Part shown: positions 13,156 to 61,185 of the stretch, piece by piece
Layout of the letters: the number at the start of each line of letters is the position of its first letter
Numbering within the stretch: the stretch's first letter is position 1
Assembly: GCA_964016885.1 (NCBI GenBank)
Contig: OZ024743.1
Span: forward strand, 117,242,001-117,306,000
DNA: 64,000 bases
Reading direction: 5' to 3'
From: Eledone cirrhosa
Lineage: Eukaryota
Made by a program: the position numbers and the translations under genes
Notes under the pieces: generated by a model
Databases searched by the model: none
Told to the model about the DNA's origin: nothing
What the model saw: the letters and a program-made list of their open reading frames with translations, nothing else

Positions 13156-13360
13156 CATGCATATTGTTATAATGCAATTCTGTATTTCACGTTTCCGCTT
13201 GTTCAAATGATTTATGAAAGGGTCGTCTGACAAAATATAAGCTTATTTGCTCGAAAATACATGGATATATAATTGATTCGCTTAGTGTCTATTGGTATTT
13301 GTTGTGTGTAGAAAACGTCCTTTCGAAAATGAATTACATTTCGCTTATTCATTATTATAT

Positions 13361-13553
13361 GGCGGTGGATTGGCAGCATCCGTAGAGTGTTGGACACCAT
13401 GCTTTGAAGCATAGAGTTACGTCCCTTTATGATCTGAGTTCAAATCCGCCGAGGTTAACTTTGCATTTCATTCTTACGGGGTCGATAAAATAAAGCACCA
13501 GTAATACACTGACATAATTGCTGGCCTTGTGCCAAAAGCAAAAGCAATTATTA
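13361..13553 (+). mobile_element. tRNA-like SINE, near full length
   Basis: A-box-like TGGCAGCATCCG, B-box GAGTTCAAATCC, conserved body ...CTTACGGGGTCGATAAAATAAAG(C/T)ACCAG, 3' TGGCCTTGTGCCA hairpin and ATT tail. There are many copies in the window. Confidence 0.85.
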
Positions 13554-13727
13554 TATGCTTTGACATTTTCAACTAGAACACCGTTGAAAAGAAAGCTTCT
13601 AAACTGTCACTTCTGCTAAAAGTATGACACTAATTGCATTCAAAACGCGCCTCTCCTCAACGTGGAAGTAGGCACTATTAATGCCGCCTCCGTACTTTTC
13701 AACGGCTCACCCTTAAATTAAAATAAA

Positions 13728-13782
<55 letters not shown>

Positions 13783-14024
13783 TTTTCTTTATTAACCACA
13801 AGGGTTCACATAAAGTAGACATTAAGGACAGTACAGGACAATACAGGACGGTACAAATGGGCATTTCTGCGTGTAAAAGAACAGAGGTTGAAATAAAATA
13901 ACAAAGAAAAATTCCCCAATAGGGGGGAGACTTCCAAGGGACATTTGTTGAGAAAGCCCATTAAAAGACCACAGTGGCCCTGACCACCAGGGCAAGTGCC
14001 CTCTCCCAGTTTTCCACCTTTAAT

Positions 14025-17000
14025 TTACAGACACATACTCAGAGAAGGCCCATTCATTCGGGCCATACTTGCTTCTCTCACCCATCTTTCAACAAAATGC
14101 TGGGAAGAGAGCACTTCCCTCTCTACCCTGATTTTCCTTTTCAAATGAAATTTGAAAAAGTTAATCAGGGCATCACCGAAGAGGTAAGTGCTTGTCTTCA
14201 GCCCTTTCAAACGTGTCCACCATACTATCTCTTTCGCCATGGCCACCAGACAGATAAAAACTGCCTGCCCTTCCAGGCTAAAGGAAGGGGGTGGGGCAAT
14301 CCTCACGATGGACTCAGCTGATAGCTGGATCCATCCTACACGTGACAGCAGGTGTTCGACATAAACCCACAAGTCGGCAATGCTCGGACACTGGACGAGT
14401 GCGTGCAGGACGGTTTCGTCGCCCTGCGCGCATCTCGGACATGCCCGGCTGGCGGCACCTCCATGCCTGTAGAGTTTATCCCGAACTGGCAAAGCTCCTC
14501 GGTAGCACTGCCAGGCCAGGGATTTCTGGAAGTTGTCCATAGGCCCCGGCCCGAAAGTCCTTCCGAAGAGATTGGCTAGTTGATTTTCGTCGACGTCTAG
14601 AGTTTCGCCAAGTACGTCGTCGCTCTTCCCCTCCACTAATCCCCTATAGAACGCCAAGGTGGAGTTTCCACCGATCACATTGCCCGATTGGTCGAGGGCT
14701 GTGAGCGCCTGAAGACATTCCAGTCTCCAAGCGCTCCCTCTCGGTCTTCGCTTGACCCAGGACTGCAGCTCCGTCAAGGAGACGAGCTGGGGAAAAACGT
14801 GTCTTGCAAACGGCGACCACACCTGATCACCGTCGAGGAAGAGGTGGAGATGTCGTAGCCTGAGCGCGTGTCTGCGCATCATCAGCCACGGCATGCCCAG
14901 CCCTCCACGTAGCGGGTGTTGACAGCAGATGGACCGCCTGACCATCGGAGCGCGTCCCTTCCACAAGAAGCGAAAGAGCAAACGCTCCAGCACAGTCAGG
15001 CGGGGCTTAGGACAAGGTACGACGGTCAGGCGGTAGTAGATGACGGATGCGATGTACGCATTCGCCACCTCCGCTCGACCTTTTAGGGATAGCTTCCTCT
15101 CGGCCCATTTCTGGGTGAGAGAAGCCACCCTGCTCGTCACCTCGTCCCAGTTTTTGTCCGTCTGGAGGTCTGGACCGAACCAGACCCCTAGCAATTTAAC
15201 CGGTCCGTCCGTCCAGCGCCCGACGACGCTGTTGGACGGCATGGACCTGCCTCTCCAGGTGCCGAGCTGCAGGCCCACTGACTTTTCCTGGTTGATCATT
15301 GCTCCTGTCACCGCTTCGTATTCTCTTAGTGTAGTGCCGATCGCCTCGATGTGTTTGGCGTTCGACACCACTACGGTGACATCGTCGGCATATGCTGACA
15401 CGGATCTTCCGCACCCTAGTTCGCGCGGGACCCCCCTCAACGTCTCCAGTTTGTGCAGTAATGGCTCGAGAGTCAATACGTACAATAGGGACGAGAGGGG
15501 ACATCCTTGGCGGACCGAGCGCATGATGTTGAACGGTTCCGAAAGGTGACCGTTCACTCTCACTACAGAGCAGATGTCGCTGTGCATGGCAGCGATCCAG
15601 CCTCTGAAGACGGGCCCAAAGCCAGCCGCCCTCAGGACTGCCGCTAGGTAACGATGGTCGACCCTATTGAAGGCTTTCGACTGATCTAAATTGATCAAAG
15701 ACCCACCCGTGCCAGGTTCCCTAGCTACCCTCTCTACGATGTATCGCATGAGGTGGAAGTTGTCGTGGATGGATCTGTCGGGAATGGCGCATGTCTGTGC
15801 CTCTCCCACCAGACCACCAACGACAAGCGCCAACCTCTTTGCTAGCACCTTGGCCAAAATCTTGAACTCTGTGTTTAGCAGAGTTATGGGCCTAAAATTA
15901 TCTATGTTATCCCCCTTGTTCGGATCCTTTCTCAGCAGCGCCACCGCTCCTCGGCTCACAGAGCTGGGAATTCTCCCGTTCTGTTGCCTGTTGCAGTAGA
16001 CGTCCGCCAAGAGGCCTCCGAACAAGTTTGGCATTTGTACGTAAAGTTCATAGGGCAGACCATCCAAACCAGGCGATTTGCCCCTTGTGCAACTAGTCAT
16101 TGCATCCCGTACTTCAGCGGTTGTTATCGGCTTTTCGCAACACTCCGCCTCAGTGGCCGAAAGCCGCGGCAGTCCGTCGAGGTAGACACTAAAGTCCATC
16201 CCTCGATCCGGCCCGCCACTGCCCCCGAACAGTTGAGCGAAGTGTCGCTGAAAAGCTTCACACATTTGCCCGGGATCGAGTAGCATGCGCCCGTCGTGGT
16301 CCACCAAAGACCGGATCGTGGCTTTGTTGCCACGACGCGCCTCCGCCACTCGGGCCCATTCAACGGCTTTCGTCCCCTCGTGTCTGAGAGCACGCACCCT
16401 AGCTCTGACAACGCAGCCTTCGTGCTTTGCATTGAAGAATTGGTCAAGGGCCAATTTCGCCGCAAGTACGTCGGTCGCGATGCCTTTGCTAAGCGCCTCA
16501 TCTAATTTTCTAACTAATTCTCCCTCTGCTCTATTTTTCTCTATTGCTAAAGTCTTACTAAACCTAATGGACTCTATTCTAATTGCTCTTTTCAGAGCAA
16601 ACCACCACTTGTTGTTGACGATGGCCCCCGTCAACGCCCGCTTAACTAGTTCGCTAATCCGGTCTCTGTAGGCCTTGCGCGCTGGTAAGGACGCGTTTAG
16701 CTTCCAGTAGCCGGGTCCTCGTCTATGGAGCCTATCTAAGTCAAGCACACAGATCACGAATTTGTGGTCCGTGTAGCTGACTATCTTGAATTGTGGACAG
16801 CCTATGCTAGACCTATCTATTTCCCTACAAAATACTCTATCTAGATATGATCTGGATGACCCTATGCGATTTGTCCAAGTCCACATTGGTACATTCGGGA
16901 AATCCATTCGGTACCTGTCAGACAGTTCAAAACGTCTGAGCAGGTTGGTGAGACTCTTGCACCCTCCTTCCCTATCCACTAATCCCACACAATCCCAGCG

Positions 17001-17444
17001 TGCATCTAAGATCCCGTTCCAGTCGCCCACTAACACTAAAGAGCGGGACGTTCCAGGAAAGGTCTCCAGACGCCGGAAGAAATCAGGCCGCCCTGCTCCT
17101 GTCGGGGCATAGACGGCCACTAACCTGAAAGCTTGCCCGTCTCCGCTGGTCACGTCCAGCACCACCAACTTACCTTCTGGGTCCAGGAAGATGGCCCGTA
17201 TGGCAAGATCCAAACCTCTCCGAAAAAGCACAGCAACTCCTCCCCCCGATCCCGGACGGCTGGGAGATGCGTACACATCGTAGCCGCCGAAGATCGGTGC
17301 GAAAGCCTGTGCTTCGGAGATTCTGGTCTCGCTAATGGCCACTACATCTATGTTTAGTGACCTGAGGTCGTTGAGCAGGTGGCCCTGCTTCCATGACGAC
17401 CCCAAGCCACGCGCATTTATGCTGCCTATTCTGAGTGAGGTCAT
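14025..17444 (-). CDS. LINE ORF2: APE endonuclease, reverse transcriptase and C-terminal CCHC zinc motif (1139 aa, uninterrupted)
   Basis: APE motifs SINARGL, SETR, GDWN, YLDRVF, TDHK. RT motifs KSPGLDG, NFRPITLLN, DQSKAF, QGCPLS, YADD. Also GGLGMP and CPRC..ETVLHALVQC. Confidence 0.96.
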   Translation of the reverse strand: MTSLRIGSINARGLGSSWKQGHLLNDLRSLNIDVVAISETRISEAQAFAPIFGGYDVYASPSRPGSGGGVAVLFRRGLDLAIRAIFLDPEGKLVVLDVTSGDGQAFRLVAVYAPTGAGRPDFFRRLETFPGTSRSLVLVGDWNGILDARWDCVGLVDREGGCKSLTNLLRRFELSDRYRMDFPNVPMWTWTNRIGSSRSYLDRVFCREIDRSSIGCPQFKIVSYTDHKFVICVLDLDRLHRRGPGYWKLNASLPARKAYRDRISELVKRALTGAIVNNKWWFALKRAIRIESIRFSKTLAIEKNRAEGELVRKLDEALSKGIATDVLAAKLALDQFFNAKHEGCVVRARVRALRHEGTKAVEWARVAEARRGNKATIRSLVDHDGRMLLDPGQMCEAFQRHFAQLFGGSGGPDRGMDFSVYLDGLPRLSATEAECCEKPITTAEVRDAMTSCTRGKSPGLDGLPYELYVQMPNLFGGLLADVYCNRQQNGRIPSSVSRGAVALLRKDPNKGDNIDNFRPITLLNTEFKILAKVLAKRLALVVGGLVGEAQTCAIPDRSIHDNFHLMRYIVERVAREPGTGGSLINLDQSKAFNRVDHRYLAAVLRAAGFGPVFRGWIAAMHSDICSVVRVNGHLSEPFNIMRSVRQGCPLSSLLYVLTLEPLLHKLETLRGVPRELGCGRSVSAYADDVTVVVSNAKHIEAIGTTLREYEAVTGAMINQEKSVGLQLGTWRGRSMPSNSVVGRWTDGPVKLLGVWFGPDLQTDKNWDEVTSRVASLTQKWAERKLSLKGRAEVANAYIASVIYYRLTVVPCPKPRLTVLERLLFRFLWKGRAPMVRRSICCQHPLRGGLGMPWLMMRRHALRLRHLHLFLDGDQVWSPFARHVFPQLVSLTELQSWVKRRPRGSAWRLECLQALTALDQSGNVIGGNSTLAFYRGLVEGKSDDVLGETLDVDENQLANLFGRTFGPGPMDNFQKSLAWQCYRGALPVRDKLYRHGGAASRACPRCAQGDETVLHALVQCPSIADLWVYVEHLLSRVGWIQLSAESIVRIAPPPSFSLEGQAVFICLVAMAKEIVWWTRLKGLKTSTYLFGDALINFFKFHLKRKIRVEREVLSSQHFVERWVREASMARMNGPSLSMCL

Positions 17445-17478
17445 GTTGAAAAGGAGTGGAAAAGATGGGAAAGACCAC

Positions 17479-19464
17479 TTACCTTACTTCTCGTAGGGGA
17501 AGGACGGCTTTTCCATCCTTTTCACTGCTTGTGGCCTCCTCAGGAAGGATGTCCTTATAAATCCTCCTGGAGAGTGCTTGTCGGAAGTCTCCGATGTCTT
17601 TGGGGAATTTTTGTTTTAGTGTCATGTACGTTTTCTGTGTGATGCGAGTGATTTGTATGTGTGGAGGTGGTGTGAATTTTGGGGTTGTTGTGTAGTCTTT
17701 TTCTGTGATGCTGGTGTTGTGTTGGATGTAGTGTAATAATTGCTTGTTGTTCAAATTTAATGCTGTGTAGTGTGTATCGTTTTGGTTGTTTTGTTTTGTT
17801 TGCGTTTGTTGTGGGTTTGTTTCTGTTTCGCTTTTTGGTGACTTTTGTGGTGTAGGTGATGGTGGTGCTGGGGATGATGATGGTGATGGTGTTGGTGTTT
17901 GGGTTGATGGGGTTGGTGATGCTGGTGTGGATGGTGGCATATCTGTCCTAACTTTTTTGTTTCTTAGTTTATTTGTTTCCCTCTGTATTTTGTTTTTGGA
18001 GGGGGAAGGAAGAGAATTTTTTCTTTTTTGGTTTCTTTTTTTTTTCCGGATATCGTTTCCCACTCCTCGTCGTCACAATCTGTCTCCAGTTGTGATAGGC
18101 CGGGGAGTGGAAAATCCTCCACAGCCGTTAGTTTTGGTTGTGGTGTGGTGGATGGTGTAGGCGCTGGTGCTAGTTCTGAAGCGTTGGGTGGTGGTGGTGT
18201 TGGTTTTGCTGGTGGTGGTAGTGGTGTTGGTTTTGCTACTGTTGCTGGGGTTGTTGCTGTTATAGTTGCTTCTGTTGTTGCTGCTACAGTTTTTGCTGCC
18301 ATCTCTGCTACTGGTGGTGTTGATGGTTTTGTCACTGGGGTGGGTAGGAGAGGTGGCCTCAACCTTTTAGCCTGAGGGCAGAAAGCCCTTAGGTGGGTTC
18401 CTTCACCACAAACGACACACCTAGGTCTTCTGCCCTCGACAATTACCGTGAGGTGGCTGCCGTCAGTGAGGTCTATTACCTCTGGGATCTCCTCAATGCT
18501 TTTTTGGTCCGCTTGGATCAGGAGCTCCATCCCAGATCCGGACCAGTTTTCCTGCTTTTCTTTTGCTACTGCTATTATTTTCGTGTTGGCTTCGATGCCG
18601 GTGAGGACAGCCGCTATTAGCCAGGGAATTTCGATGGCCGGTGGAACGTGGGTCACCCTGATCTTTACGAGTCTCTGGCCACAATAGCTTGGGACGAGTG
18701 TGAGGTCGTCACTTTTTAATGGGGCCATGGAGTGTTCTCTAGCCTCCTCTGGTGTTTCAAAGAACACATCCACGGTTCCATACTTTTGCCCACGTCTGAT
18801 GTGGGTTTTTCTTGCCCACACATGTCCCAAAGCTTTTTGGATTTGGGACTCGGATGCCCGTTCCACTCGGCGCAATTTTACATTTATTGTTCTATACGAC
18901 ACGGTGCACAGGCGCCGATGCTCCATTTTATTAGGTGGGGGGGGTGAGGCTGACCCTGTACCCATCTTTCTTTACCATTTGTTTGGCATTTTCTAAATTT
19001 TCTTGGGTTACCGTGAACGCTTCGAATTGTTTTGCTACGATGGCGAAACTGAGGGTCGGTTTTATAATGTCATTGTTGTTGTTGCTATCGTTAATATTAA
19101 TTTTATTTTCAGTTGTGGTGGTTGTGACGTCAGTCGTCTTTGGTGGGGAAGAGTCCATTTTGCTTGATTTCATTTCGACGTCACGAGTTAATTTATTTTT
19201 TTCTTCTTTTGTTTCTGTTGTCGCGGTGGTGGTGGTGGTGGTGGTGGTTGTCGCGGTGGTGGTGGTGGTGGAGGGTTTAACACCTGCAGTCATTGGTAAT
19301 GGCGGGAAATGAATGTCTGCCTGAGACAAATTTAAAATATTGCTACTGCTTATATTTTTTTTTGTGTTGGCAAACGTAGTAACATTTACAATGGTGGTGT
19401 CGGTGTGAGGTGTTATTTTGTGAGGAAGGCTTTCAGCTGCTTCGTGCAGAGGGGAATTAGCCAT
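17479..19464 (-). pseudogene. LINE ORF1 (gag-like, single CCHC knuckle) split by two homopolymer frameshifts
   Basis: Three overlapping ORFs (18931-19464, 17964-18965, 17479-18063) with a CVVCGEGTHLRAFC (CX2CX4HX4C) knuckle. The junctions fall in C and A runs and are read through in copy 3 and copy 2 respectively. Confidence 0.85.
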
Positions 19465-19700
19465 TTTTTTTCAAAGAAATTTTTGGATTATAATAAAAGT
19501 TAAAATTTTGGGCACAAGGCCCCAATCTTTTTGGGTGTCCTTTTCGGAAAACAATGTATGTGTGCTTATAAACAGTTTACAATAAAATTTTCCATAAATG
19601 GCAATTTTTAAACAAACGGAAATAACAAACCTTTGCGGAGCTGACGATAATACGATTTCCTACGTAGGTCGCCAATAATAATAATAATAATAATAATAAT

Positions 19701-22700
19701 GATTTCTTTATTAACCACAAGGGTTTACATAAAGTAGACATTAAGGACAGTGCAGGACAATACAGGACGGTACAAATGGGCATTTCTGCGTGTAAAAAAC
19801 AAAAACAGAGGTTGTAACAAAAAATAACAATGAAAAATTCCCCAATAGGGGGGAGGCTTCGTAGGGACATTTGTGGAGGAAGCCCAGTAAAAGGCCACAA
19901 TGACCATGACCACCAAGGCAAGTGCCCTCTCCCAGTTTTCCACCTTTAATTTACATATATATACTCAGAGTAGGCCCATTCACTCGGGCCATTATTGCTT
20001 CTCTCACCCATCTTTCAACAAAATGCTGGGAAGAGAGCACTTCCCTCTCTACTCTGATTTTCCTTTTCAAATGAAATTTGAAAAAGTTAATCACGGCATC
20101 ACCGAAGAGGTAAGTGCTCGTCTTGAACCCTTTCAAACGTGTCCACCATGTTATCACTTTTGCCATGGCCACCAGACAGATACAAATTGCATGCCCTTCC
20201 CGGCTAAAGGAAGAGGGCGGGGCAATCCTCACCGGACTCAGCTGATAGCTGGATCCGACCTACACGCCTCAGCAGGTGTTCGACATACACCCACAAGTCA
20301 GCAATGTTCGGACACTGGACGAGTGCGTGCAGGACGGTTTCGTCGCCCTGCGTGCATCTCGGACATGCCCGGCTGACGGCACCTCCATACCTTAGAATTT
20401 ATCCCGAACTGGCAAAGCTCCTCGGTAGCACTGCCAGGCCAGGGATTTCTGGAAGTTGTCCATAGGCCCCGGCCCGAAAGTTCTTCTGAAGAGCTTGGCT
20501 AGTTGATTTTCGTCGACGCCTAGAGGTTCCCCAAGTACACGTCGCTCTTCCCCTCCACTAATCCTCTATAGAACACCAAGGTAGAGTCCACCGATCACAT
20601 TGCCCGATAGGTTGTGGGTTGTGAGCGCCTGAAGACATTCCAGTCACCGAGCGCTCCTTCTCAGTTTTCGCTTGACCCAGGACTGCAGCTCCGTCAAGGA
20701 GATGAGCTGGGGTACAACGCGTCTTGCAAACTGCGACCACACATGATCACTGTCGAGGAACAGGTGGAGATGTATGTCGTAGCCTGAGCGCGGTCTGCGC
20801 ATCATCAGCCACGGCATGCCCAGCCCTCCACGTAGCGGGTGTTGACAGCAGATGGACCGCCTGATCATCGGAGCGCGTCCCTTCCACAAGAAGCGAAAGA
20901 GCAAACGCTCCAGCGCGGTCAGGCGAGGCTTAGGACAAGGTACGACAGTCAGGCGGTAGTAGATGAGGGACGCGATGTACGCGTTAGCCACCTCCGCTCG
21001 AACTTTCAGGGATAGCTTCCTCTCCGTCCATGTCTGGGTGAGAGAAGCTACCCTGCTCGTCACCTCGTCCCAGTTTTTGTCCGTCTGGAGGTCCGGATCG
21101 AACCAGAACCCTAGCAATTATACGGTACGTCCGTCCAGCGCCCGACGATGCTGTTGGAAGGCATGAACCAGCTTCTCCAGGTGCCGAGCTGCAGGCCCAC
21201 TGACTTTTCTTGGTTGATCATTGCTCCTGTCACCGCTTCGTATTCTCAGTGTAGTGCCGATCGCCTTGATGTGTTTGGCGTTCGACACCACTACGGTGAC
21301 ATCGTCAGCATATGCTGACACGGAACTTCCGCATCCTAGTTCGCGTGGGAACCCCCTCAACGTCTCCAGTTTGTGCAGTAATGCCTCGAGAGTCAATACG
21401 TACAAGAGGGACGAGAGGGGACATCCTTGGCGGACCGAGCGCATGATGTTGAACGGTTTCGAAAGGTGAACGTTCACTCTCACCACAGAGCAGTTGTCGC
21501 TGTGCATGGCTGCAATCCATCCTCTGAAGACGGGCCCAAAGCCAGCTGCCCTCAGGACTGCCGCTAGGTAACGATGGTCGCCCCTATCGAAAGATTTCGA
21601 CTGATCTAAATTGGTCAAGGACCCACCCGTGCCAGGTTCCCTAGCTACCCTCTCTACGATGTATCGCATGAGGTGGAGGTTGTCGTGGATGGATCTGTCG
21701 AGAATGGCGCATGTATGCGCCTCTCCCACCAGACCACCAACGACAGGCGCCAACATTTTTGCTAGCACCTTGGCCAAAATCTTGAACTCTGTGTTTAGCA
21801 GAGTTATGGGCCTGATATTATATATGTTATCCCCCTTGTTCGGCACCTTTCTCAGCAGCCCCATCGCTCCTCGGCTTACAGAGCTGGGAATTCTCCCGTT
21901 CTGTTGCCAGTTGCAGCAGACGTCCGCCAAGAGGCCTCCGAACGAGTCTGGCATCTGTACGTAAAGTTCATAGGGCAGACCATCGAAACCATGCGATTTA
22001 CCCCTTATGCAGCCAGTCATTGCCACCCGCGCTTCAGCGTGTTTTCGGCTTTTCGCAACACTCCGCCTCAGTGGCCAAGAGTCGCGGCAGTCCCTCGAGG
22101 TAGACACCAACGTCCATCCCTCGATCCGGTCCGCCACTGCCCCCGAACACCTGAGCGAAGTGTCGCTGAAAAGCTTCACACATTTGCCCGGGATCGAGTA
22201 GCATGCGCCCGTCGTGGTCCACCAAAGAGCGGATCGTGGTTTTGTTGCCATGACGTGCCTCCGCCACTCGGGCCCATTCAACGGCTTTCGTCCCCTCGTG
22301 TCTGAGAGCACGCACTCTAGCTCTGACAACGCAGCCTTCGTGCTTTGCATTGAAGAATTGGTCAAGGGCCAATTTCGCCGCAAGTACGTCGGTCGCGATG
22401 CCTTTGCTAAGCGCCTCGTCTAATTTTCTAACTAGTTCTCCCTCTGCTCTATTTTTCTCTATGGCTTTACTAAACCTAATGTACTCTAATCTAATCGCTC
22501 TTTTCAGAGCAAACCACCAATTGTTGTTAACGATGGCCCCCGTCAATGCCCGCTTAACCAGTTCGTTCATCCGGTCTCTGTAGGCCTTGCGCGCTGGTAA
22601 GGACGCGTTTAGCTTCCAGTAGCCGAGTCCTTGTCTATGAAACCTATCTAAGTCAACCTCAAGATCATGAATTTGTGGTCCATGGAGCTGACTATCTTGA

Positions 22701-25385
22701 ATTATGGACAGCCTATGCTATACTTATCTATTTCCCTACAAAATACTCTATCTAGATATGATGTGGATGACACGATGCGGTTTGACCAAGTCCACATTGG
22801 CACATTCGGGAAATCCAATCGGTACCTGTCAGACAGTTCAAAACGCCTGAGCAGGTTGGTGAGGTTCTTACACCATCCTTCCCTATCTGCTAACCCCACA
22901 CAGTCCCAGCGTGCATCTAAGATCCCGTTCCAGTCGCCCACTAACGCTAAAGAGCGGGACGTTCCAAGAAAGGTCTCCAGAAGCCGGAAGAAATCAGGCC
23001 GCCCTGCTGCTGTCGGGGCATAGACAGCCACTAGCCTGAAAGCTTTCCCGTCTCCGCTGGTCACGTCCAGCACCACCAACTTACCTTCTGGGTCCAGAAA
23101 GATGGCCCGTATGGTGAGATCCAAACCTCTCAGAAAAATTACAGCAACTCCTCCCCCCGATCCAGGACAGCTGGGAGATGCGTACACATCGTAGCCGCCG
23201 AAGATCGGTGCGAAGGCCCGTGCTTCGGAGATTCTGTTCTCGCTGATAGCCACTACATCTATGTTTAGTGACCTGAGTTCGTTGAGCAGGTGGCCCTGCT
23301 TCCATGACGACCCCAAGCCACGCGCATTTATGCTGCCTATTCTGAGTGAGGTCATGTTGAAAAGGAGTGAAAAAGATGGGAAAGACCACTTACCTTACTT
23401 CTCGTAGAGGAAGGATGGTTTTTCCATCCTTTTCACTGCTTGTGGTCTCCTCCGGAAGTGTGTCCTTATAAATGATCCTGGAGAGTGCATGTCGGAAGTC
23501 TCCGATCTCTTTGGGGAATTTTTGTTTTAGTGTCGTGTACGTTTTCTGTGTGATGCGAGTGATTTGTATGTGTGGAGGTGGTGTGAATTTTTGGGCTTTC
23601 GTGTAGTCTTTTTCTGTGATGCTGGTGTTGTGTTGGATGTAGTGTAATAATTGGTTGTTGTTCAAATTTAATGCTGTGTAGTGTGTATCGTTTTGGTTGT
23701 TTTCTTTTGTTTGCATTTGTCGTGCGTTTGTTTCTGTTTCGCTTTTTGGTGACTTTTGTGGTGTTGGGGATGATGGTGTTGGGCTTAATGATGGTGATGG
23801 TGTTGGTGTTTGTGGTGATGGGTTTGGTGATGCTGGTGTTGATGGTGGCATAGCTGTCTTAACTTTTTTGTTTGTTTGTTTATTTGTTTCCCCCTGCATT
23901 TTGTGTTTGAGGGCGATGGAAGAGGATTTTTTCTTTTTAGGGTTCTTTTTCTTTTTTTCTTTTTTCCTGATACAATTTCCCACTCCTCGTCGTCACAATC
24001 TGTCTCCAGTTGTGATAGGTCGGGGAGTGGAACATCTTCCACAGGCGTTGTTTTTGGTTGTGGCGTGGTGGATGGTGACGCGCTGGTGTATTTCTGGCGC
24101 GGTAGGTGGTGGTGGTTTGGTTTTGCTACTGTTGCTGGGGTTGTTGCTGCTACAGTTGTTGCTGCCATATCTGCTGCTGGTGGTTTTGATGGTTGCGTGA
24201 CTGGGGTGGGAAGGTGAGGTAGCCTCAACTTTTAGACTAAGGACAGAAAGCGTTTAGTTGGGTACCTTCGCCACAAACGACACATCTAGGACTTCTACCC
24301 GCAACGATTACGGTGAAGTAGCTGCCATCATTGAGGTCTATCACCTCTGGAATTTCTGCTTGGATCAGGAGCTCCATCCCAGTTCTGGGCCAGTTCTCCT
24401 GCTTTTCTTTTGTTACCTCAATTATTTTCTTGTTGGCCTCGATGCAGGGGAGAACAGCAGCTATTAGCCAGGGAATTTCGATGGCCGGTGGAACGTGGGT
24501 CAACCTTATCTTTACGAGTCTCTGACCACAATAGCTTGGGACGAGTGTGAACTCGTCACTTCTTAATGGGGCCATGGAGTGCTCTCTGGTTTCCTGTCGG
24601 GTTCCAAAGAACACGTTCACGGTTCCATATTTTTGCCCACGTCTGATGTGGGTTTTTCTCGTCCACACATGTCCCAAAGCTTTTTGTATCTGGGACTCGG
24701 ATGCCCGTTCCACTCGGCGTGATTTTGTGTTTATCGTCCGATATGACACGGTGCAAAGGCGCCGATGCCCCATTTTATTAGATGGTGGCGGGGGTGGGTG
24801 ATGCTGACCCTGTACCCATCTTTTTTTACCATTCTCTTGGCTTCATTTAATTCATTTGGCCTTCCTCGATTGTTTCGCTTTTCTTGGCTGCTTTGGCGTT
24901 GTTGTTATTCTCGTTGTTGTTGTTGTTGCTGTTGTTGTTGTTATTCTTATTTTTGTTGTTGTTATATTTAGTTTCAGTTGCGGTGGTGGTGGTGGTCGTG
25001 GTGTCAGCAGTTATTGGTTATGGCGGAAAATGAATGTCTGCATGTGACAAATTTAAATTATTGCCACTGCTTATACTTTTAGTGTTGGCAAGCGTAGTAA
25101 TGTCTACAATGGTGGTGGTAGGTGTTGGTCTGATAGGAAGGCTGTCAGCTTTGTGTGGCTGCGAGCCGTCCATGTTTTTTCAAAGAAAGTTTTTGTTTGA
25201 TAATTATAAAAGTTTAAATTTTGGGCTCAAGACCCCAATCTTTTTGAGTGTACTTTCAGAAAGCAATATATGTGAACTTCTAAACAGTTAACAACAAAAA
25301 AAATCCATAACTGGCAATTTGAAACAACTGAAAACAACAAACCTTTACGGAGCTCACGATAACACGATTTTCTAGGTAGGTCAAC
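19701..25385 (-). mobile_element. Full-length Tx1/L1-type LINE, copy 2 (decayed close relative of copy 1)
   Basis: Colinear with copy 1. ORF2 pieces at 22702-23355, 22034-22570, 21118-22383, 20644-21117 and 19951-20232; ORF1 pieces at 23390-25173. (ATT)n tail at 19674-19700. Confidence 0.93.
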
Positions 25386-25409
25386 AATAAAAATAATAAT
25401 AATAATAAA

Positions 25410-28400
25410 GGTTTCTTTATTGGCCACAAGGGCTGAAATGAAGAAAAACATTAGAGACGGCACAGAACATTACATGACGATACAAAGTGGGTTTTGGTCG
25501 TGTAAATAGGTTATAACAAAATCGGGCTAGAAATCAAAAACATTCAAACATCAAAAATTCCCCAGGGGAAACCTCCTAGGGTCGCTGGTGGCGAAAACCA
25601 CACAAAAGGACATCGGCCACCCTGACCGCCAGGGCAAGCATCCTCTCTCAGTTTTCTCACTCCTCAGTCATCAGGTGCATACTCAGAGCGGGCCCATTCA
25701 CTCGGACCAGACTAGCCACTTTCACCCACCTTTCAACAAACTTATTAGAAGACAGTACTTGCTTCTCCAACCTGATTTTCCTCGTCAAGTGAAACTTGAA
25801 AAAGTTAATCAGGGATTGGCCGGAGAGGAAATTGTCCGTCTTCAACCCTTTCAACTCTGCCCACCACACAATATATTTCACCATGGCCACCAGGCAGATG
25901 AAAAGGAGAATGGTGGGACTATCTGCACAATGGACTCAGTCGATAATCGGATCCGTACTACACACGACAGTAGCTGTTCGACATAGCTCCACAAGTCAGC
26001 AATCCTCGGGCACTGAACGAATGCATGCAGGACGGTTTCGTCGCCTTGCGCGCATCTCCGACAGGCTCAGCTGACAGCACCTCCATGCCTGTAGACCTTA
26101 TCCCGAACGCGCAACGGTCCCCGGTAGCACTGCCAGGCCAGGGATTTTTGGAAGTTGTCCAAAGGCCCCGGTCTGAAAGTTCTCTTGAAGACAGCGAACA
26201 GCTGGCCGTCTTCGACGCCTAGAGTCTCCCCGAGAACGTCGTCGCTCTTTCCCTCCACTAACCTTCTATAGAACGCCGAAGGGGATGTTCCACCGATACT
26301 AGTGCCCAGCTGGTAGAGGGCGGTGAGCGCTTGGAGACATTCCAGCTTCCAAGCGCTATCCGTCGATCTTTTCCTGATCCTGGACTGCAGCTCCATCAAG
26401 AAGACGAACTGGGGAAAAGCGCGTCTGGCACACGGCGACCACACCTTTTCATCGCCAAGGAAGCACCAGATATATCACAGCCTCAGCGCATGTTTGCGCC
26501 TCATCAGCCACGGCATGCCTAGTATCCACGCAACGGGTGGAGTACTAGCAAATGGATCGTCTGACCATGGGAGCATGTCCCTTCCACAAAAAGCAGAATA
26601 GAAGGCGCTCCATTTTGGTCAGAGTTGGGCGGGGCAAGGTACGACGGTCAGGCGGTAGCAGATGACGGACGCAATGTACGCATTCACCACCTCTGCCCGA
26701 CCTTTCAGAGACTGCCTTCTCTCGGCCCATTTCTGGGTGAGAGAGGCCACCCTGCTCGTCACCTCGCTCCAGTTTTTTTCCATATGGAGGTCCGGACAAA
26801 ATCAGACCCCGAGCAATTTAAGCGGTCCTTCCTGTCGGGCGGCATGGGCATGCCTCTCTAGGTGCCGAGTTGCAAGCGCACCGTCTTTTCCTGGTTATAT
26901 TTTGCTCCTGTCACCGCTTCGTATTCCTTGAGAGCGGAGTCCAGCATCTGGACGTGTTTGGTGCTTGACACCACCACGGTGACGTCGTCGGCGTAAGCTG
27001 ATAGTGACCTACCGCATCCCAGTTCGCGTGGCACCCCCCTCATCGTCTCCAATTTGTACAGTTACGGATCGTGGGCCAGTACGTACAAAAGGGACGAGAT
27101 GGGGAAACTCTGGCGGACAATGGGAATGATGCTGAAAGGCTGCCTCAGGTGACCATTCAGCTTCACAATCGAGCAGATGTCGCTGTGCATCGCAGCGATC
27201 CAGCCCCTAAAAACGGGCCCGAAGCTGGCCGCCTCGAGGACCGCAGCTAGGTACCGATGGTCGACCCTATCAAATGCTTTAGATTGATCCAAGTTGATCA
27301 GGGCCGCACCCGTTCCAGGGTCTTAACCATCCTCTCTATGATGTATCGCATGAGATGGAGGTTATCGTGGACGGATCTGTCCGGGAAGACGCATGTCTGC
27401 GCCTCTTCCACCAGATCACCGACGACAAGCGCAAATCCCTTTGCTAATACCTTCGCAAAAATATTAAACTCTGCGATTAGCAGAGTTATGGGCCTGAAGT
27501 TGTCTATAATGTCCCCGTTGTTCGGGTCTTTTCTAAGCAGCGCCACCGTACCCGGGCTCACAAAACTGAGAATGCTCCCGTTGTGCTGCTAGTTGTAGTA
27601 GACATCTGCCAGAGGTCGCCGAACAAGTGTGGCATGTACGCATAAAGCTCGTAGGAGACCATCCAAACCTGGCGGTTTAACCGTCGTGCTGTCAGACATC
27701 GCTTCCCGTACTTCACCTGCTGTTATCGGCTTTTCACACTGCGATGGAGTCTATCTAAGTCGACTTCACAGATCACAAATTTGTGATCCGTGTAGGCGAC
27801 TACTTTAAATTGTGGACAACCTACACTAGCCTTATCTGTTTCCCTACATAATACCCTATCTAAATACCATCTGGATGACCCGATGCGCTTTGCCCATGTC
27901 CACATTGGCACATTCGGATAATCCAGTCTATACCTGTTAGACAGTTCAAAACGTCTGAACAGGTTGTTGACGCTTTTACATCCTCCTGCCCTGTCTACTC
28001 GCCCCACATAATCCCAGCGTGCATCTAAGATACCTTTCCAGTCGCCCACTAACACTAAAGGGCGGGACGTTCCAAGAAAGGTCTCTAGACGTCTTAAGAA
28101 ATCTGGCCGTCCTGCCGCTTTTGGGGCCTAGACGGCTACTAGCCTAAAAGCATTGCCTTCGCTGCTAGTCACGTCCAACACCACCGACTTACCTTCTGGG
28201 TCCAGGAAGATGGCCCGTATGGCGAGATCCAAGCCTCTCCGAAAAAGCACGGAACTCCTCCCGCTGATCCTGTGCGGCTGGGAGATGCATATACATACAT
28301 CGTAGCCGCAGAAGATCGGTGCGAAGGCTCGTGCTTCGGAGATTCTGGTCCCGCTGATGGCCACCACATCTATGTTTAGTGACCTGAGGTCGTTGAGCAG

Positions 28401-30679
28401 GTGACACTGCTTTCAAGATGACCCAGGCCACGTACATGTATACGGCCTATTCGAAATACGGCCATGTTGGATGAGAAACGGGGTAAGTGAGAAAGGATCA
28501 CTTACCTTGATCGTGTGGTGAAGGGACAGTAGAACCGTCCCTTTGGCTGGTCATGGGTGTTTCCAAGAGGATGTCGGTGTATATCCTCTTGGTAACCGAC
28601 CCTCTGAAGTCTCCAACTACGTTGGGGAATTTTTCTTTTAAAAGTTTGTAATGTTCTATTTTGATTTCAATGATGTTTATGTTTTTCGGGAGAGTTCTTG
28701 GTGTTGGTAGGGTGTAGTAATTTTTTTCTTTGATATTTGTGTGCTACTTTATATGTTGTAAGAGTTCTTTATTTGCCATGTTTATGGCTGTGAACTTTTT
28801 GTGGAAAGGGGTGATTTTGTTGCTGTTTTCTTCTTGTTGCTGTTGGCTCTGTGTGTTTTGTTGTGTTTGCGATGTTGGTGTTTTGGGTGATGCTGGTGGT
28901 GGTGTGGTTGTTTTTGTTGATGCTTGTGGTGTTGCTGCAAATCTCCTTACAGCCTTTACCTCTCTTTGTTTGCCTTCGCTTTTGGAGGGTGAAGCTAAGG
29001 GTTTTTTTCTTTTTTTTGTTTGTTGTGGCAGACCGTTTGCCACTTCCCTCCCGCCTCATACGCCATGTCGGATTCCGTGGCGTCTGGGAGAGGTATGAGC
29101 TCCACTGCTGTTCGTGGTGTTAGTGGAGCCCGCTCCTGCAATTTTGCCGCCGGTGTAGCTGCTGCGAATGTTGGTGTTGCCGCCACTGCTGCCGCTGTTT
29201 TAGTTGTCAGTGGCCTTGGCCGGGGTGCCACGGACATTGCCCTCCTACTCACCATGGAAGTGTCTTCTGCCTCTGTTGCCTGCCCTGTTCTTGATAGTAG
29301 CGTATCAGGCGTCGGAAGGAGGGGGCCCTCTTCTTGGCTGTCTTCTGTGGGCAGAAGGCCCTGAGATGACCCTTCTGCCCACAGAGATAGCATTTTGGTC
29401 GCCTTCTTTCCACGCTTATAGGGAGTTGGAGTCCTTCCTTGAGGTCTATGATATCTGGGATGGCCTCGATGCACTCCTGGTCAGTTTGTATTAGCATTTG
29501 CATGCCTATTCCTGACCAGTTCTCTCTTCCCATTCTCTGTATTTGCAGTATCGTGGTCTTCTTCTCAATTCCAGCAAGTACAGACGCGGCCAGCCAAGGC
29601 ATGGACACGTAGGGTGGGACCTGGGTCAATTTTGACGCTCACAAATTTCTGCCCGCAGTAGGAGGGCACCAAGTCTATCTCCTCACTTTTTAGGGTTTCC
29701 AAAGAGTGAGACTTTGCTTCGTGGGGGGGGGGAGAAAGGTACGTCTACTGTGGCGTACTTTTTGTCTCGGGTGATGTGGTGTTTGCGCGCCCAGTAGCAC
29801 TCCAAGGTCTTTGGGATTTCAGCCTCCGTGGCTCTCTCCACCCGATGTGACATTTTGCTTACGGTGAGGTAAGTCACCGTGCGCAGCTGCTGGTCTTTGA
29901 AGAAATCGGGTGGAGTTTTCAGGGAAACTCTATTGTCATTTCTTGACACCATGGCTCTTGCGACTGCCATCTCCCCCTCCGTGAGTAGCACTTTCTCTAT
30001 ATTTTGGGCCACACCTGCGAAAGAAGTGGCCCCTTTTTCAGCGCCACCATTATTGCTGCCGCTACTGCTACTACTTGTCTTGTTGTTGATGCTGTTGCTG
30101 TTGCTACAAAGAGTGTTCTTGGTGTTGTTGCTGTTATCACTGTTGTAGTTGGTTGTGTTTTTGGTGCCACCGTTGTTGTTGTTTTCGGTACAATTTGTAT
30201 TTTTGCTGTTGGTGTTGTCGTTCTTTATCTTCTTTTTAATGGTGTTAATATCGTTGTTGCATTTGTTGTCATTTTTTTCTGTTGTCTGTATTTTGGTTGT
30301 TGCTGTTATTGTTGTAGTTGATGTGATAATTTTTTTTAAATTAGTGTTCTAAGTGTTGTTGACTTTGTTCACGTTGTTTGTGGTGGTGTTTGTTGTATCA
30401 ATTTCTGTAACCCTCCTCTCAACTTTTACGCCGTTGTCACACGACAGCAGACATATTGTTGGGGGGGGGGGGGGCATGGCTCAGCCATGTTTTTTTTTTA
30501 TTTTTAAAACTAAAATATTCAAATATTAATCAAATATTTGGGCCAAAAGGCCCAAATATTATACTTTCACAAGGCAAAGTCCAAGGGCTTACACAACAAG
30601 AAAAATTAAGCAACAAATAATTATAACAGGTAAATAAAGCGACCTACTGGTAACGAGCAAAAAGACGTCCGAAGAGCCC
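25410..30679 (-). mobile_element. Tx1/L1-type LINE, copy 3 (divergent subfamily, decayed, about 0.6-kb internal deletion)
   Basis: ORF1 remnants at 28502-30488 with CYLCGQKGHLRAFC. ORF2 remnants start at 28465 (DQSKAFDRVDH, YADD). DRLHR joins directly to the CEKPIT region at about 27740. Confidence 0.9.
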
Positions 30680-31113
30680 AATAATAATAATAATTGTTTC
30701 TACTTTTGGCACAAGGCCAGTAATTACCCAGTGCATTACTGGTACTTTATTTTATCGACCCCGTAAGGATGAAAGGCAAAGTTGACCTCGGCGGGATTAA
30801 ACTCAGAATGGCAAGGGCCGTAACTCTATGCGTCAAAGCATGGCGTCTGACCCTCTACCGATACTACCAATCCATAATAATAATTGTTTCTACTTTTGGC
30901 ACTAGGCCAGCAATTATCTAGTGCATTACTGGTACTTTATTTTATCGACCACGTAAGGATGAAAGGCAAAGTTAACCTCGGCGGGATTTGAACTGAGGAT
31001 GGCATAATAATAATTGTTTCTACTACTGGCACAAGGCCAGCAATTATCCAGTACATTACTGGTACTTTATTTTATCCACCCCGTAAGGATGAAAGGCAAA
31101 GTTAACCTCGGCG
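30680..31113 (-). mobile_element. Tandem of three SINE copies joined by (ATT)n tails
   Basis: Three repeats of AATAATTGTTTCTACT..TGGCAC(A/T)AGGCCAG..GTAAGGATGAAAGGCAAAGTT. Confidence 0.88.
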
Positions 31114-31692
31114 AATAATTGCGAATTAGAGTTCCTAACCAGATTGTTCTGAACTACACATGAAAATCAATATCAGAACATTGTCCTGCTCCAAAATACA
31201 CGCATATGTTTTACATGGAGGTGATTGCCCTAAACAAATGAGTCCAAGACAAATTTTAAAAAACGGAAGATTCATGGCTAAAAGGCTGTTTGGGATACAT
31301 TTACGCGATCTGAATTGAACTGAGGTTGAAAAGAAAGAAAATTTGCTAATATATTCACAATATGCAAAAAGTAAACGTGATCAAGGAAGCGACACAAGTT
31401 GTTGTGTGAATATATGAACGATTTTGTAACATGAAGCCATCGGTTAGTGTGTGATAAATCCATTATGTAGAAAATAAAATTTGTCCGCCACATGTATTCC
31501 TTAGTAAATGACGATGCTGTGTCTGCAAGAATTTATCAATCCAAATTGTTTTCCGCAATTCGAAAATACTGTGACAGAATGTTATACTTTTCTGAGAGAA
31601 CGAGAGTGTACGTTCTACGTCTTAATATACGTAGACATGTCTTCTATAATGAAACAATTGATCTAATATATGTTAATACTATTATAATTTAG

Positions 31693-31810
31693 ACTGAATT
31701 CAAATCCCGCCGTGGTTAACTTTGCCTTTCATCCTTACGGGGTCGATAAAATAAAGCACCAGTAATGCACTGGGATAATTTCTGGCCTTGTGCCAAAAGT
31801 AGAAACACTT
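31693..31810 (+). mobile_element. SINE, 5'-truncated
   Basis: B box, conserved body and 3' hairpin match the SINE family. Confidence 0.8.
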
Positions 31811-32279
31811 ATAATTTAGACTGCAGATATGACTTGTGAACTATTAAAGCATATTTCAGACTGTCTGAATTTACATATATGTTACAAGGATACTTTTTAA
31901 GGCCCTATAGGCCCTAAATAACTCTTCAGCTCACTGTCCACTGCTCGATAAACTTATGCCAAGAACTGATGGCCCTCATAGCACGAAATAAAGAAAATGA
32001 GAAAGAAGGGAGATTTTTGGCACCAGAACCTACAGAGTCACAGGCAATCATGATGGTGTGAATGGCGCAAGAGACATACAAAAACAATTTGGAGACTGTT
32101 CTCCATTACAAAGGAAACCCTAATATAAGAGCTTTTCAATAGGCTTTTCAAATGATTCTGAAAAAAAACACCTTTCTCCATTACATATAAAACTCTAATG
32201 TAAGAGTTTTTCAGTAGGTTTAAAAAAACAAAAAAAACAACACCAAGTATGGAGGTCCAACACCCCGATCTCCTAAAGC

Positions 32280-33510
32280 GCCGGGTGTAAGTAGTCCCCT
32301 TTTTTCTCCTAACTAACCAGTTAACATGCATAAATGTTCGTGGTCTGGGATCGTCTTGGAAGCATAGTCTGTTGCTCTACGAACTTAGATAACTAACTAT
32401 AGATGCATTGGATTTCCGACAGGCACTAGCTTCATTGCTGTCGACTATGACATCTTCGCATCTCTCAAACGACCTAAAATAGGAGGCACGGTGACAGTGT
32501 TGGTTCGGAAATACCTGGATCCTGTGGTACTGATTATCTTCTTGGAATTGAACGGGAAGTTGGTGGTCCTGTACGTGAACAGTAGTAAAGGTGATACATT
32601 TAGGCTGGTGAGTGTCTATGCCCCAACTGGAGCGGGACAGCTGGATTTCGTCAGGCGCTTGGAAAACATTCTTCGCTCTTTACTCTTAGCGCGGGACTGG
32701 AAAGGCATCTTGGACGCACATTGGGATTGTAAAGATGAAATATATAAAAGCGCGAGGTGCAAAAGCCTCGAGAATCTAATTAGGCTGCTACTGCTGCCTA
32801 TACACTCTACCTAGAAGGCTGGGCATGCCTTGGTTAATGCTGCGCAAACATACGCTGATGCTAAGGCATCTCCACATATCCCTAAACCATGAACAGGGGT
32901 GGTCGCTATTTGTGAGACAAATCTGTTCGCCTCGGACTAAGGACAACTTCCAAAAATCCCTGGCTTGGCTGTGTTACCGGGGGGTAATGTTGTTTTGACA
33001 CAATCTCTACAGGCACGGAAATGCTGTTAGACAGACCTCCTCTACAGGCACGGAAATGCTGTTAGACAGACCTCTCCAAGATGCACATGGATCGACTGAA
33101 GATAGCCTATTTTCTCTTTAGCCAAGTCTTCATCAACTTTTTCAAGTTCCTCATGAAAAGGAAGGTGAGGGAGGAAAGGGAAGTGTTGCCCCCCAGTAAA
33201 TTTGTAAAAGGATGGGTGAAGAAAGTATGATGGCCCGAGTGAATGCGCATACTCTGACCATGGCCTTCCTAGTGTGCTCTTGTAGATTAAGGCAGGCCTA
33301 TTTGGTATTGATGGGATTCCTAGGTCAACATTGGGAGTTACTTTCACAATTGGGGAATATTTAAAGTTGTAATTGTATCATTTATTGTTATTTGTTATCA
33401 TTTTTTACTCGATATATATTTGCAACTCCCTATTGTCCCTGTTTTTATGTTCTCCTTCATATTTCGGCCCAGATTATTATTTTTCTTTACAATTGGTGAT
33501 AAACATAATA
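32280..33510 (+). mobile_element. Internally deleted Tx1/L1-type LINE relic
   Basis: VRGLGSSWK, FRLVSVYAPTGAG, LGMPWLML, DNFQKSLAW and INFFKF occur in order, but the RT core is missing. Confidence 0.85.
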
Positions 33511-33778: not shown

Positions 33779-33800
33779 CTAGTAGTAGTAGTAGTAGTAA

Positions 33801-33853
<53 letters not shown>

Positions 33854-33854
33854 A

Positions 33855-33929
<75 letters not shown>

Positions 33930-33950
33930 TAGTAGTAGTAGTAGTAGTAA
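33779..33950. repeat. (TAG)n microsatellite flanked by divergent SINE copies
   Basis: Direct observation. SINE body motifs lie at about 33575-33730 and 33950-34130. Confidence 0.9.
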
Positions 33951-54100: not shown

Positions 54101-54472
54101 GTCCGGCCGTCCTGCCCCAGTAGGGGCGTATACGTCCACCAGTCTAAAGGCACCAACTTCGTTATTGTTCACGTCCAGGACCACCAAATTCCAGTCCGCG
54201 TCCCGGAAGTTCGACCTTACCTCGAGATCCAGGCCTTTCCTAAACAGCCCTGCCATCCCGCCTCCCATTCCCAGCCGACTAACAGATGCAAAGATCTGAT
54301 AGTCGTCAAAATTGGGGGCTAGTGCGCGCGTGTCAGAAATCCTGGTCTCGCTGACGGCAATTGCATCCATTTCTAGAGACCTGAGGTCGTTGAGCAGGTG
54401 GACCTGCTTCCAGGACGATCCCAGGTCTCGAACATTTAAACTTCCTACTCTTAATACGGCCATGTTGGCAGA
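51161..54472 (-). mobile_element. Tx1/L1-type LINE, copy 4: ORF2 plus 3'UTR only, decayed
   Basis: MAVLRVGSLNVRDLGSSWKQ, GDWN, YSDHK, NFRPITLL, DQSKAFD and YADD. There is an internal deletion at about 52055 and an (ATT)n tail at 51123-51160. Confidence 0.9.
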
Positions 54473-54473
54473 T

Positions 54474-59974: not shown

Positions 59975-61185
59975 TTATCCCCAACTATTATTTACCACCA
60001 CCATCACTGGCACACTACCACCAATATTAACCACTGCAACCACCACCCTCACCACCACCGCAGCAGCAGCCACACCCACCACTGCCACACACGCCGCCAC
60101 CACCACACATAGCACCACCACACCCAGCACCACCACACACGCCACCGCCACAACCACCACCGCCACACACGCCACCACCACACCCACCACCGCCACACAC
60201 GCCACATCCACAAACACCGCCGTCACACACGTCACCACCACACCCACCACCGCCACACCCACCACCACCACACCCACCACCGCCACACCCACCACCACCA
60301 CACACACCACCACCACCATACACACCACAGCCACACCCATCACCGCCACAACCACCACATCCATCACAAGTCAAACCGCACCACCACCACACCCATCCCC
60401 ACCATACCCACCACCGCCACTACGATCACAGCCACCACAAGCCCAACCACGCCACCACAACACCGCACCACCACCACCACACCCACTACCGCCACTACCA
60501 ACACGCCACAACCATCGCCACCACCACAACCCCCACTACCACCACCACTACCAACACCGCCACAGCCACCACCGCCACCACCACCACCGCCACTACCACC
60601 ACAGCCATCACAAGTCCAACCACCACCACAACACCCACCACCACATCCACCACCACCACAGCCACTACCGCCACTACCAACACCGCCACAATCATCACCA
60701 CCACCACAACCCCCACTACCACCACGCCATTACCAACACCGCCACAACCATCGCCACCACCACAACCGCCACTACCACCACAGCCACCACAAGTCCAACC
60801 ACCACCACAACACCCACCACCATCACACCCACTACCGCCACTACCAACACCGCCACCACCACCACCACCACCGCCACTACCACCACAGCCACCACAAGTC
60901 CAAACACGCCACCACAACACCCACCACCACCACCACAACAACACCCACTACCGCCACTACCACCGCCACTACCACCGCCACTACCACCACAAGTCCAAAC
61001 ACGCCACCACAACACCCACCACCACCACCACAACAACACCCACTACCGCCACTACCAACACCGCCACAACCATCACAACCCCCCACCACCACCACCACCA
61101 CCGTCACTACCACCACCGCCACAGCCATCGCCACCACCACCACCACCACCACCACCACTACTACCACCACAAGTCCAACCACCAC
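59975..61185. repeat. (CCA)n-derived degenerate minisatellite
   Basis: Recurring CACAAGTCCAA..CCACCACAACACCCACC units within a CCA-rich tract. Confidence 0.85.

Follow-up and report, generated by a model that had tools for sequence, protein, structure and literature searches.

A question of order and growth

How does a row of retrotransposons come to stand head to tail with nothing between its members except a three-letter repeat? We addressed this in Eledone cirrhosa, in a 64,000-nucleotide stretch of contig OZ024743.1 (the window; G000:C4:117242001-117306000, assembly of 3.0 Gb). On the minus strand it holds three short interspersed elements (SINEs) followed by three long interspersed elements (LINEs), here copy 3, copy 2 and copy 1, joined by ATT repeats alone. 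A first-pass annotation had proposed that this LINE inserts into (ATT)n, leaves an (ATT)n tail and so recreates its own target, which would give a polarised, age-ordered array. The structure it described was borne out: the SINE tandem and copies 3, 2 and 1 alternate with (ATT)n in that order, no other spacer occurs over 13728-31119, and all three LINEs are co-oriented and 5'-complete. Our data suggest that the LINE lineage sits behind (ATT)n genome-wide and very probably targets it, and that the window is a stack of separate insertions. An (ATT)n-targeting lineage of L1/Tx1 type that stacks by reuse of tracts, and not a polar telomere-like system, is the reading well supported by the sequence comparisons.

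LINE starts follow ATT repeats across the genome

We read the 5' flanks of relatives of each copy, ranked by similarity of the untranslated region (UTR) without regard to the flank: the top-ranked 39 of 1910 for copy 1, 29 of 2128 for copy 2 and 29 of 1502 for copy 3. A head tract, that is, ATT units directly before the start, was present in 39/39 young family A copies (6-21 units), 29/29 copy-2-like and 29/29 copy-3-like copies (at least 2 units). Genome-wide, 579 of the 621 exact family A starts came directly after an in-phase (ATT)3, with 0.23 expected: in 40 evenly spaced 10-kb stretches, a position is preceded by in-phase (ATT)3 at a frequency of 3.7e-4. We observed at least five distinct 5' ends (families A, B, C, D and E), each starting with G straight after ATT. 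The sequence 5' of full-length starts was not random; it was strongly enriched in (ATT)n, in the strand orientation that puts copies head to tail. With a tract at both ends of the element, this agrees with the proposal that the LINE inserts into (ATT)n and leaves an (ATT)n tail. By the criterion of PMC4494074, an element counts as microsatellite-specific when more than 20% of its flanks lie in the repeat; here the figures were 579/621 starts and 97/97 loci read.

Truncated copies bear on whether the tract belongs to the target. In one listing, 12/15 truncated or internally deleted copies join an ATT tract, in mixed phases. A 9-nt LINE end (AAAGAAANC) stands between two ATT tracts in 14 matches at 13 loci (L285-L296), and 10 of the 12 loci fetched have no LINE body directly upstream; these ends are likely insertions with extreme 5' truncation. 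Because truncated copies and 9-nt insertions also sit behind tracts, the tract appears to be target and not part of the element. If instead each end of the element itself consisted of (ATT)n and insertion took place at unrelated sites, the tracts would not be targets. Full-length heads in a single phase (579/621) are what one would expect if the RNA began with AUU repeats, and three of four shared interruptions had more units in the head than in the tail, one of which (L066) was later read otherwise. Such an element would not leave tracts ahead of copies that lack the 5' end, nor heads that abut the exact 3' ends of ATT-tailed LINEs or SINEs, as in 22/39 young and 18/29 family B copies. We consider this alternative very unlikely; an AUU leader may nevertheless add to targeting.

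Several points weigh against targeting of (ATT)n. Targeting is deduced from flanks. Four of six non-full-length copies in another listing had no ATT at the 5' joint; in three of these four the joint is to an antisense Dong-like element that may have removed the LINE head. An older fourth LINE copy in the window likewise has no tract at its 5' joint. Target-site duplication was visible only at L085 (ATT-ACT in head and tail) and weakly at L251 and L255, and at least six interrupted heads had no echo in the tail. Every young-copy sample came from contigs C1-C3, and L077/L078 are one duplicated locus. L077/L078 and L105/L106 are pairs with identical flanks (recent segmental duplicates), whose tracts already differ by 1-3 units.

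The three copies differ in age and family

For each copy, divergence was the share of positions that depart from the most frequent letter of its five nearest relatives, taken from 214 segments. It reached 7.9% in copy 3, 5.2% in copy 2 and 0.4% in copy 1, and both steps were significant (copy 3 vs copy 2, P = 2.5e-8; copy 2 vs copy 1, P = 2.3e-65). The best genome matches to the 5'UTRs were 87-88%, 93% and 99%, respectively. These values uphold the graded decay seen at first pass, with copy 3 divergent and deleted and copy 2 carrying stops and frameshifts. The second open reading frame (ORF2) of copy 3 has stops, frameshifts and an internal deletion of residues about 255-448 (about 190 codons), and that of copy 2 is spread over three frames with 7 stops within the tblastn pieces.

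The ORF2 of copy 1 is open, as the annotation had stated, over 1152 amino acids (aa). Pfam Exo_endo_phos, RVT_1 and zf-RVT all scored over their cut-offs, and the best PDB match was human L1 ORF2p (E = 1.8e-51, residues 5-855). Copy 1 is not intact, however: its ORF1 lies in three frames, and its ORF2 carries 8 private amino-acid changes, each present in at most one of 38-39 relatives. ORF1 is open in the relatives L079 and L085 (661-665 aa); natural copies from families A and C have an ORF1 of 661-714 aa that contains one CX2CX4HX4C. A Pfam search with ORF1 gave no family match. Both frames are open in several relatives (L079, L085), and 25/31 young copies in the 3'-anchored sample extend to position 1. 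Since young copies are mostly full length and relatives keep both frames open, the lineage was recently active.

Identity to copy 1 is 90% for copy 2 and 99% for dispersed genome copies; copies 1 and 2 are thus not closer to each other than to dispersed copies. Identity between copies 3 and 1 was 75-77% in ORF2 and only 47-65% in the first 2.1 kb. Copy 3 belongs to family B, with a distinct 5'UTR and ORF1, so the idea that the stack is made of one family had to be given up, and because of this other family the array is no tandem duplication. We also weighed local duplication together with an assembly artefact. Reads on the locus were swamped by other copies of the repeat family and no piece spanned any junction, so they were uninformative. 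The copies differ by 10-25% and by family, copy 1 has its near-identical relatives elsewhere, and the same type of junction recurs at dozens of loci; the probability of such an origin is negligible.

Families A and C are 96% alike in ORF2 and 43% in ORF1. We observed exchange of 5'UTR/ORF1 modules across L062, L076 and L085 (families A, C, D and E) and in copy 3 (B). Families B, E and A agree at 87-93% in the endonuclease region and are more diverged elsewhere.

Tracts are shared among LINE families, SINEs and an antisense element

We assessed the neighbours of young copies on both sides. To the left of 39 copies lay a LINE tail in 21, an antisense Dong-like element in 5, a SINE tail in 1 and other sequence in 12; to the right of 38 copies lay a LINE head in 6, a Dong-like tail in 12, a SINE in 6 and other sequence in 14. 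The 21/39 copies stand directly behind an older or coeval LINE tail, with arrays of four in L076, and upstream partners are drawn from families A, C, D and E at 80-99% identity. Stacks are common genome-wide, as foreseen if each insertion recreates its own target. Self-stacking describes only part of this: own tails are reused, but the same tracts are made and used by five or more families with distinct 5' ends, as well as by a SINE and an antisense Dong/R4-like element.

The tails used have changed between families. LINE tails received 2/29 family B, 8/29 older family A and 21/39 young family A copies (young vs B, P = 6e-5), and SINE tails received 16/29, 4/29 and 1/39 (young vs B, P = 6e-7). 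The simplest reading is a shift of landing pads, in which SINE tails would have been long when family B was active and LINE tails would have accumulated afterwards. Today the two kinds of tail are equally common at 6 units (7496 for the SINE, 8015 for the LINE) but not at 10 (1944 vs 5682).

The antisense element (L136:2067-6600) has one 1141-aa frame with reverse transcriptase (RT) and C-terminal CCHC, RHD and PD..D motifs, a set that we take to be of Dong/R4 type. It is young, its copies being 98% alike (L136, L070, L082, L063 and many tail flanks). Its antisense position in the shared ATT tracts means that one microsatellite serves two unrelated LINEs, each on a different strand. The antisense element makes its own tandems (L285), and a second such family ends ...AAGATAAATGCA. 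At L240, L249, L258, N194 and N204 an antisense Dong-like 5' end is fused inside a Tx1-type copy with no tract; these fusions look as if the Dong-like insertion had deleted the LINE head. A further ATT-tailed repeat, ending ...GCACTGTACACAAT..TTC, supplies landing tracts too (L165, L169, L175, L185, L246, L269, L293).

The SINE and LINE 3' ends (window 30695-30740 and 13782-13810) both hold CCTTGTG..AA..AG.AAC followed by an ATT tail, and with this common end the SINE may be mobilised by this LINE. Folds of five ends gave no significant 3' hairpin (z from -1.8 to 0.0).

Own tails are used at about twice their share

Perfect tracts of at least 10 units number 33450 genome-wide, with a LINE end before 5682 (17%) and a SINE end before 5.8%. 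Among young copies with a perfect head of at least 10 units, a LINE end stood before 15/39 (11/26 plus 4/13; P = 0.001 vs 17%). The excess persisted against a matched baseline from the first 37 Mb of contig C1, where 39/194 tracts (20%) followed a LINE end (P = 0.006). A cruder comparison gave 4/23 tracts in the 40 evenly spaced stretches vs 21/39 young copies (P = 0.007). Tract length was rejected as the cause, the LINE share being 17% at 10 or more units and at least 15.6% at 16 or more (n = 13291; a lower bound, as one tail type is uncounted). Own tails are thus over-represented about twofold relative to their share of long tracts, a bias that was not significant in the 3'-anchored sample alone (4/13, P = 0.17), which weighs against it.

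As causes of this excess, fine-scale hot spots or retention are about as likely as true recognition of an earlier copy. The targeting of (ATT)n could be real and the twofold excess reflect regional hot spots, or biased retention in which large insertions survive where LINEs already lie; we regard this as a strong contender, falling just short of probable. It fits stacks that mix Tx1-type, SINE and Dong-like elements, and the second sample, which taken alone has no significant excess. It also fits the density of long tracts at the start of C1, about half of that genome-wide, because of which targets must be unevenly spread. The C1-matched baseline, which controls at a scale of tens of Mb, speaks against it, as does the use of SINE tails at their expected share (3/39 vs 5.8% of such tracts).

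More tentatively, the lineage may recognise the 3' end of its own kind beside the tract, by RNA-DNA homology or protein binding, so that stacking would be autocatalytic; this forms part of a larger reading with the landing-pad shift and the AUU leader, which we hold possible and somewhat doubtful. If it were true, a transcript begun in the head tract would carry AUU at both ends, giving the fixed 5' joint and 80% full-length copies. An L1-type enzyme would then achieve precise, near-complete integration at a repeat contested from the opposite strand by an unrelated Dong-type element.

Younger copies tend to lie downstream, with many exceptions

In 64 adjacent pairs with both members dated, the downstream copy was younger in 33, the upstream copy in 14, and 17 were ties; most of these pairs were picked via one member, with selection biases in both directions. 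Young anchors had an older 5' neighbour in 15 cases and an older 3' neighbour in 4 (P = 0.019); farther upstream within these loci the ratio was 7:1 (P = 0.07). Fifteen of 21 upstream partners were significantly older than the anchor copy. The median tract length was 15 units for tails and 10 for heads (P = 0.004). Two results weigh against such an order: symmetrically chosen pairs, with both tails in the same listing, were split 4:4 with 2 ties, and the pooled order was 19:8 (P = 0.052). Age order is a bias of about 70:30, and an ordered window is its common outcome. The polarised, age-ordered array announced at first pass holds for the window itself and for the 15:4 bias, but not for the 14/64 pairs with a younger upstream member or the 4:4 symmetric pairs.

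The polarity of HeT-A/TART arises by end-addition. Strictly polar growth of this kind here, through the outermost tail only, would predict the order of the window and the 15:4 and 7:1 distributions around and beyond young anchors. It would not predict the significant younger-upstream pairs found at L082, L085, L092, L095, L098, N196, N197 and N200, with more at N201 (two), N203, N205, N207 and L111, and it is highly improbable unless all of these are gene conversions. The telomeric arrays of HeT-A, TART and TAHRE are head-to-tail and of one orientation (PMC5932611), and the present stacks share both traits. They differ in being interstitial (the locus lies at 117 Mb within a 379-Mb contig, as the annotation had recognised) and endonuclease-bearing; they lack the terminal position and strict polarity, and any junction can be reused. 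With any tract reusable and order only a bias, the likeness to HeT-A/TART stacking that had been noted is superficial.

Stacks might also move as units, if read-through from an upstream copy were retrotransposed as a dimer. HeT-A uses the promoter of its upstream neighbour. At four loci (L067, L074, L076, L082) the upstream partners, all of family C, match one another at 99.1-99.7% and are of the same young age as the copies downstream of them, as such dimers would be. The downstream copies at those loci nevertheless have no exclusive shared variants and group with other loci, the sequence ahead of the four partners differs, and upstream partners are in most cases (15/21) the older member. We rejected co-mobilisation as dimers on the absence of exclusive variants in the copies behind near-identical partners, and its chance is remote.

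A proposed mechanism of tract splitting

Target-primed reverse transcription is established for L1-group elements. On this model, the APE endonuclease would nick the (AAT)n strand, and the (AUU)n end of the RNA would pair with the freed primer. An AATAAA signal lies 6 nt ahead of the tail tract and cleavage takes place 10-30 nt downstream of such a signal, so AUU units would remain on the RNA. The fixed ATT|G head would result from a second cut, made on the other strand after ATT; a transcript begun in the head tract explains the fixed phase equally well. Both cuts would fall at T|A steps, at which L1 also cuts. Each insertion would split one tract into a head and a tail tract, both reusable. 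Since the older tail reads ATT on the same strand, a new copy would land co-oriented behind the older one. In the window, the SINEs most likely came first, followed by copy 3 into the SINE tail, copy 2 into the tail of copy 3 and copy 1 into the tail of copy 2. The median head and tail (10 and 15 units) together exceed the longest tract in a 400-kb sample (22), which suggests a net repeat gain at insertion.

A first nick in the AATAAAGAAA of an earlier copy (its poly(A) signal), an idea that came from L066, was rejected. Its signature occurs only 14 times genome-wide, and the fetched loci, 10/12 with no LINE upstream, read as 9-nt truncated insertions; for this reason L066 is no proof of target duplication. 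An Rfam scan of 13200-31900 for a self-cleaving ribozyme at the precise G start gave four chance-level matches only.

The element is an L1-group LINE, likely of the Tx1 clade

With an APE endonuclease, RT and C-terminal CCHC in ORF2 and a separate ORF1 upstream, the element is an L1-group LINE (L1/Tx1). A zinc knuckle in ORF1 is a feature of Tx1-type elements. Membership of the Tx1 clade is likely. Among named proteins the nearest relative of the RT comes from Argonauta hians (73%); the alligator 'transposon TX1 149 kDa protein' is also among the named matches (40% in the RT region; a name assigned automatically). An RT tree was built from 35 of the 120 listed matches; its base is open, and none of its rows is a labelled L1 or Kibi/Koshi sequence. 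In it, octopod proteins cluster with unnamed proteins in a supported group of their own, and the alligator 'TX1' and medaka proteins fall in another. A search of metagenome contigs for flanks of the nearest non-cephalopod relatives found no locus. The array copies are not Dong (R4 clade) elements, having two ORFs and APE vs a single ORF and a restriction-like endonuclease, nor Kibi or Koshi proper, as the target is (ATT)n and not (TC)n or (TTC)n.

Thirteen recently active L1-Tx1 and 5 Dong-R4 families are described for Octopus vulgaris in PMC13282606, and ATT-targeting families may already be catalogued there without their target. Our literature search, which covered neither Repbase nor subscription papers, found no ATT target for L1/Tx1-group elements.

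Relation to known systems

Kibi and Koshi, of the teleost Tx1 clade, target (TC)n and (TTC)n (PMC4494074), and crocodilian Tx1 families lie in (TTCC)n/(TTTC)n (PMC4494074, PMC3812793). These are likewise APE-RT LINEs of the L1 group in one microsatellite, and the share of flanks here is far over 20%; they differ in target and in host, and the octopod proteins fall in a separate tree group. Dong (Bombyx, Anopheles, Biomphalaria) targets the TAA microsatellite (PMC3812793), the same as the array LINEs, but on the opposite strand and with a different enzyme type. The neighbour element at L136 (single ORF, RT, CCHC, RHD, PD..D), antisense in the same tracts, fits Dong.

Double insertion at a preserved target has been described for R1 tandems and for P-element and non-LTR (non-long-terminal-repeat) dimers (PMC5932611), and tandem SINEU-3 is a further case (PMC4494074). 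There, too, successive insertion is head-to-tail and the target is kept in the junction; here a microsatellite is left at both ends instead, and at least five families and three element classes are mixed. Zepp/ZeppL, a green algal L1, inserts in nested fashion into its own copies (PMC8226300), and shares with our LINEs L1-group membership and copies that attract new copies. Zepp copies, mostly 3' ends, are gathered in a single cluster on each chromosome, whereas here thousands of short stacks are dispersed, copies are mostly full-length (25/31), and the majority of insertions lie outside own copies. In addition, 18/39 and about 19/27 young copies are not behind a LINE tail, and the 8015 tails are dispersed.

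Microsatellite targeting and tandems by double insertion are already known; the (ATT)n target and its quantification are new here, and the contributions are a genome-wide count, a polarity test, the own-tail excess and the landing-pad shift. Sequence matching the LINE lineage made up 7.4% of 40 sampled 10-kb stretches, a figure that may also count relatives targeting other sequences. Recycling of the target is a likely way in which long ATT tracts and LINE stacks grow in this genome. The lineage also offers a natural data set for the question whether the endonuclease or the RNA end of APE-type LINEs picks the microsatellite. The data comprise hundreds of young copies, most of them full-length, an ORF2 common to five exchangeable 5' modules, and an unrelated opposite-strand element.

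Features of the window

Table 1. Components of the LINE and SINE stack (window positions)
Feature	Position	Strand	Details
(ATT)18 tail tract of copy 1	13728..13781	-	
LINE copy 1, young family A, full length, 5892 bp	13782..19673	-	start GGCGACCTAC, end AATAAAGAAAAC
Copy 1 ORF2, open frame of 1152 aa, first Met at 17444	14025..17483	-	APE endonuclease, RT with YADD, C-terminal CCHC zinc knuckle
Copy 1 ORF1, split over three frames	17479..19464	-	one CX2CX4HX4C knuckle
(ATT)9 junction, copy 2 tail and copy 1 head tract	19674..19700	-	
LINE copy 2, older family A member, 5'-complete, stops and frameshifts	19701..25385	-	
TTT(ATT)5TTTATT degenerate junction, copy 3 tail and copy 2 head tract	25386..25409	-	
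LINE copy 3, family B (different 5'UTR and ORF1), 5'-complete, internal deletion near 27740	25410..30679	-	
(ATT)5 junction, SINE tail and copy 3 head tract	30680..30694	-	
SINE, full-length (about 176 bp)	30695..30873	-	end CCTTGTGCCAAAAGTAGAAACA
(ATT)3 and 5'-truncated SINE (SINE itself 30885-31003)	30876..31003	-	
(ATT)3, second 5'-truncated SINE (31015-31113) and preceding ATTATT (31114-31119)	31006..31119	-	

Beyond the stack, the older fourth copy (family D; window 51123-54473, minus strand) has an (ATT)12 tail, begins at ORF2 and carries an internal deletion. Its 5' end is fused to a SINE piece with no ATT tract, and more SINEs then follow. At 32300-33257 (+), on the opposite strand, lie the much-deleted remains of a LINE from this group that is more distantly related (amino-acid identity about 50-55%); a (TAG)n array is close by, at 33780-33949. 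Long degenerate (ACC)-rich and (TCA)n arrays at 60039-61185 and 49029-49646 give rise to spurious long open frames.

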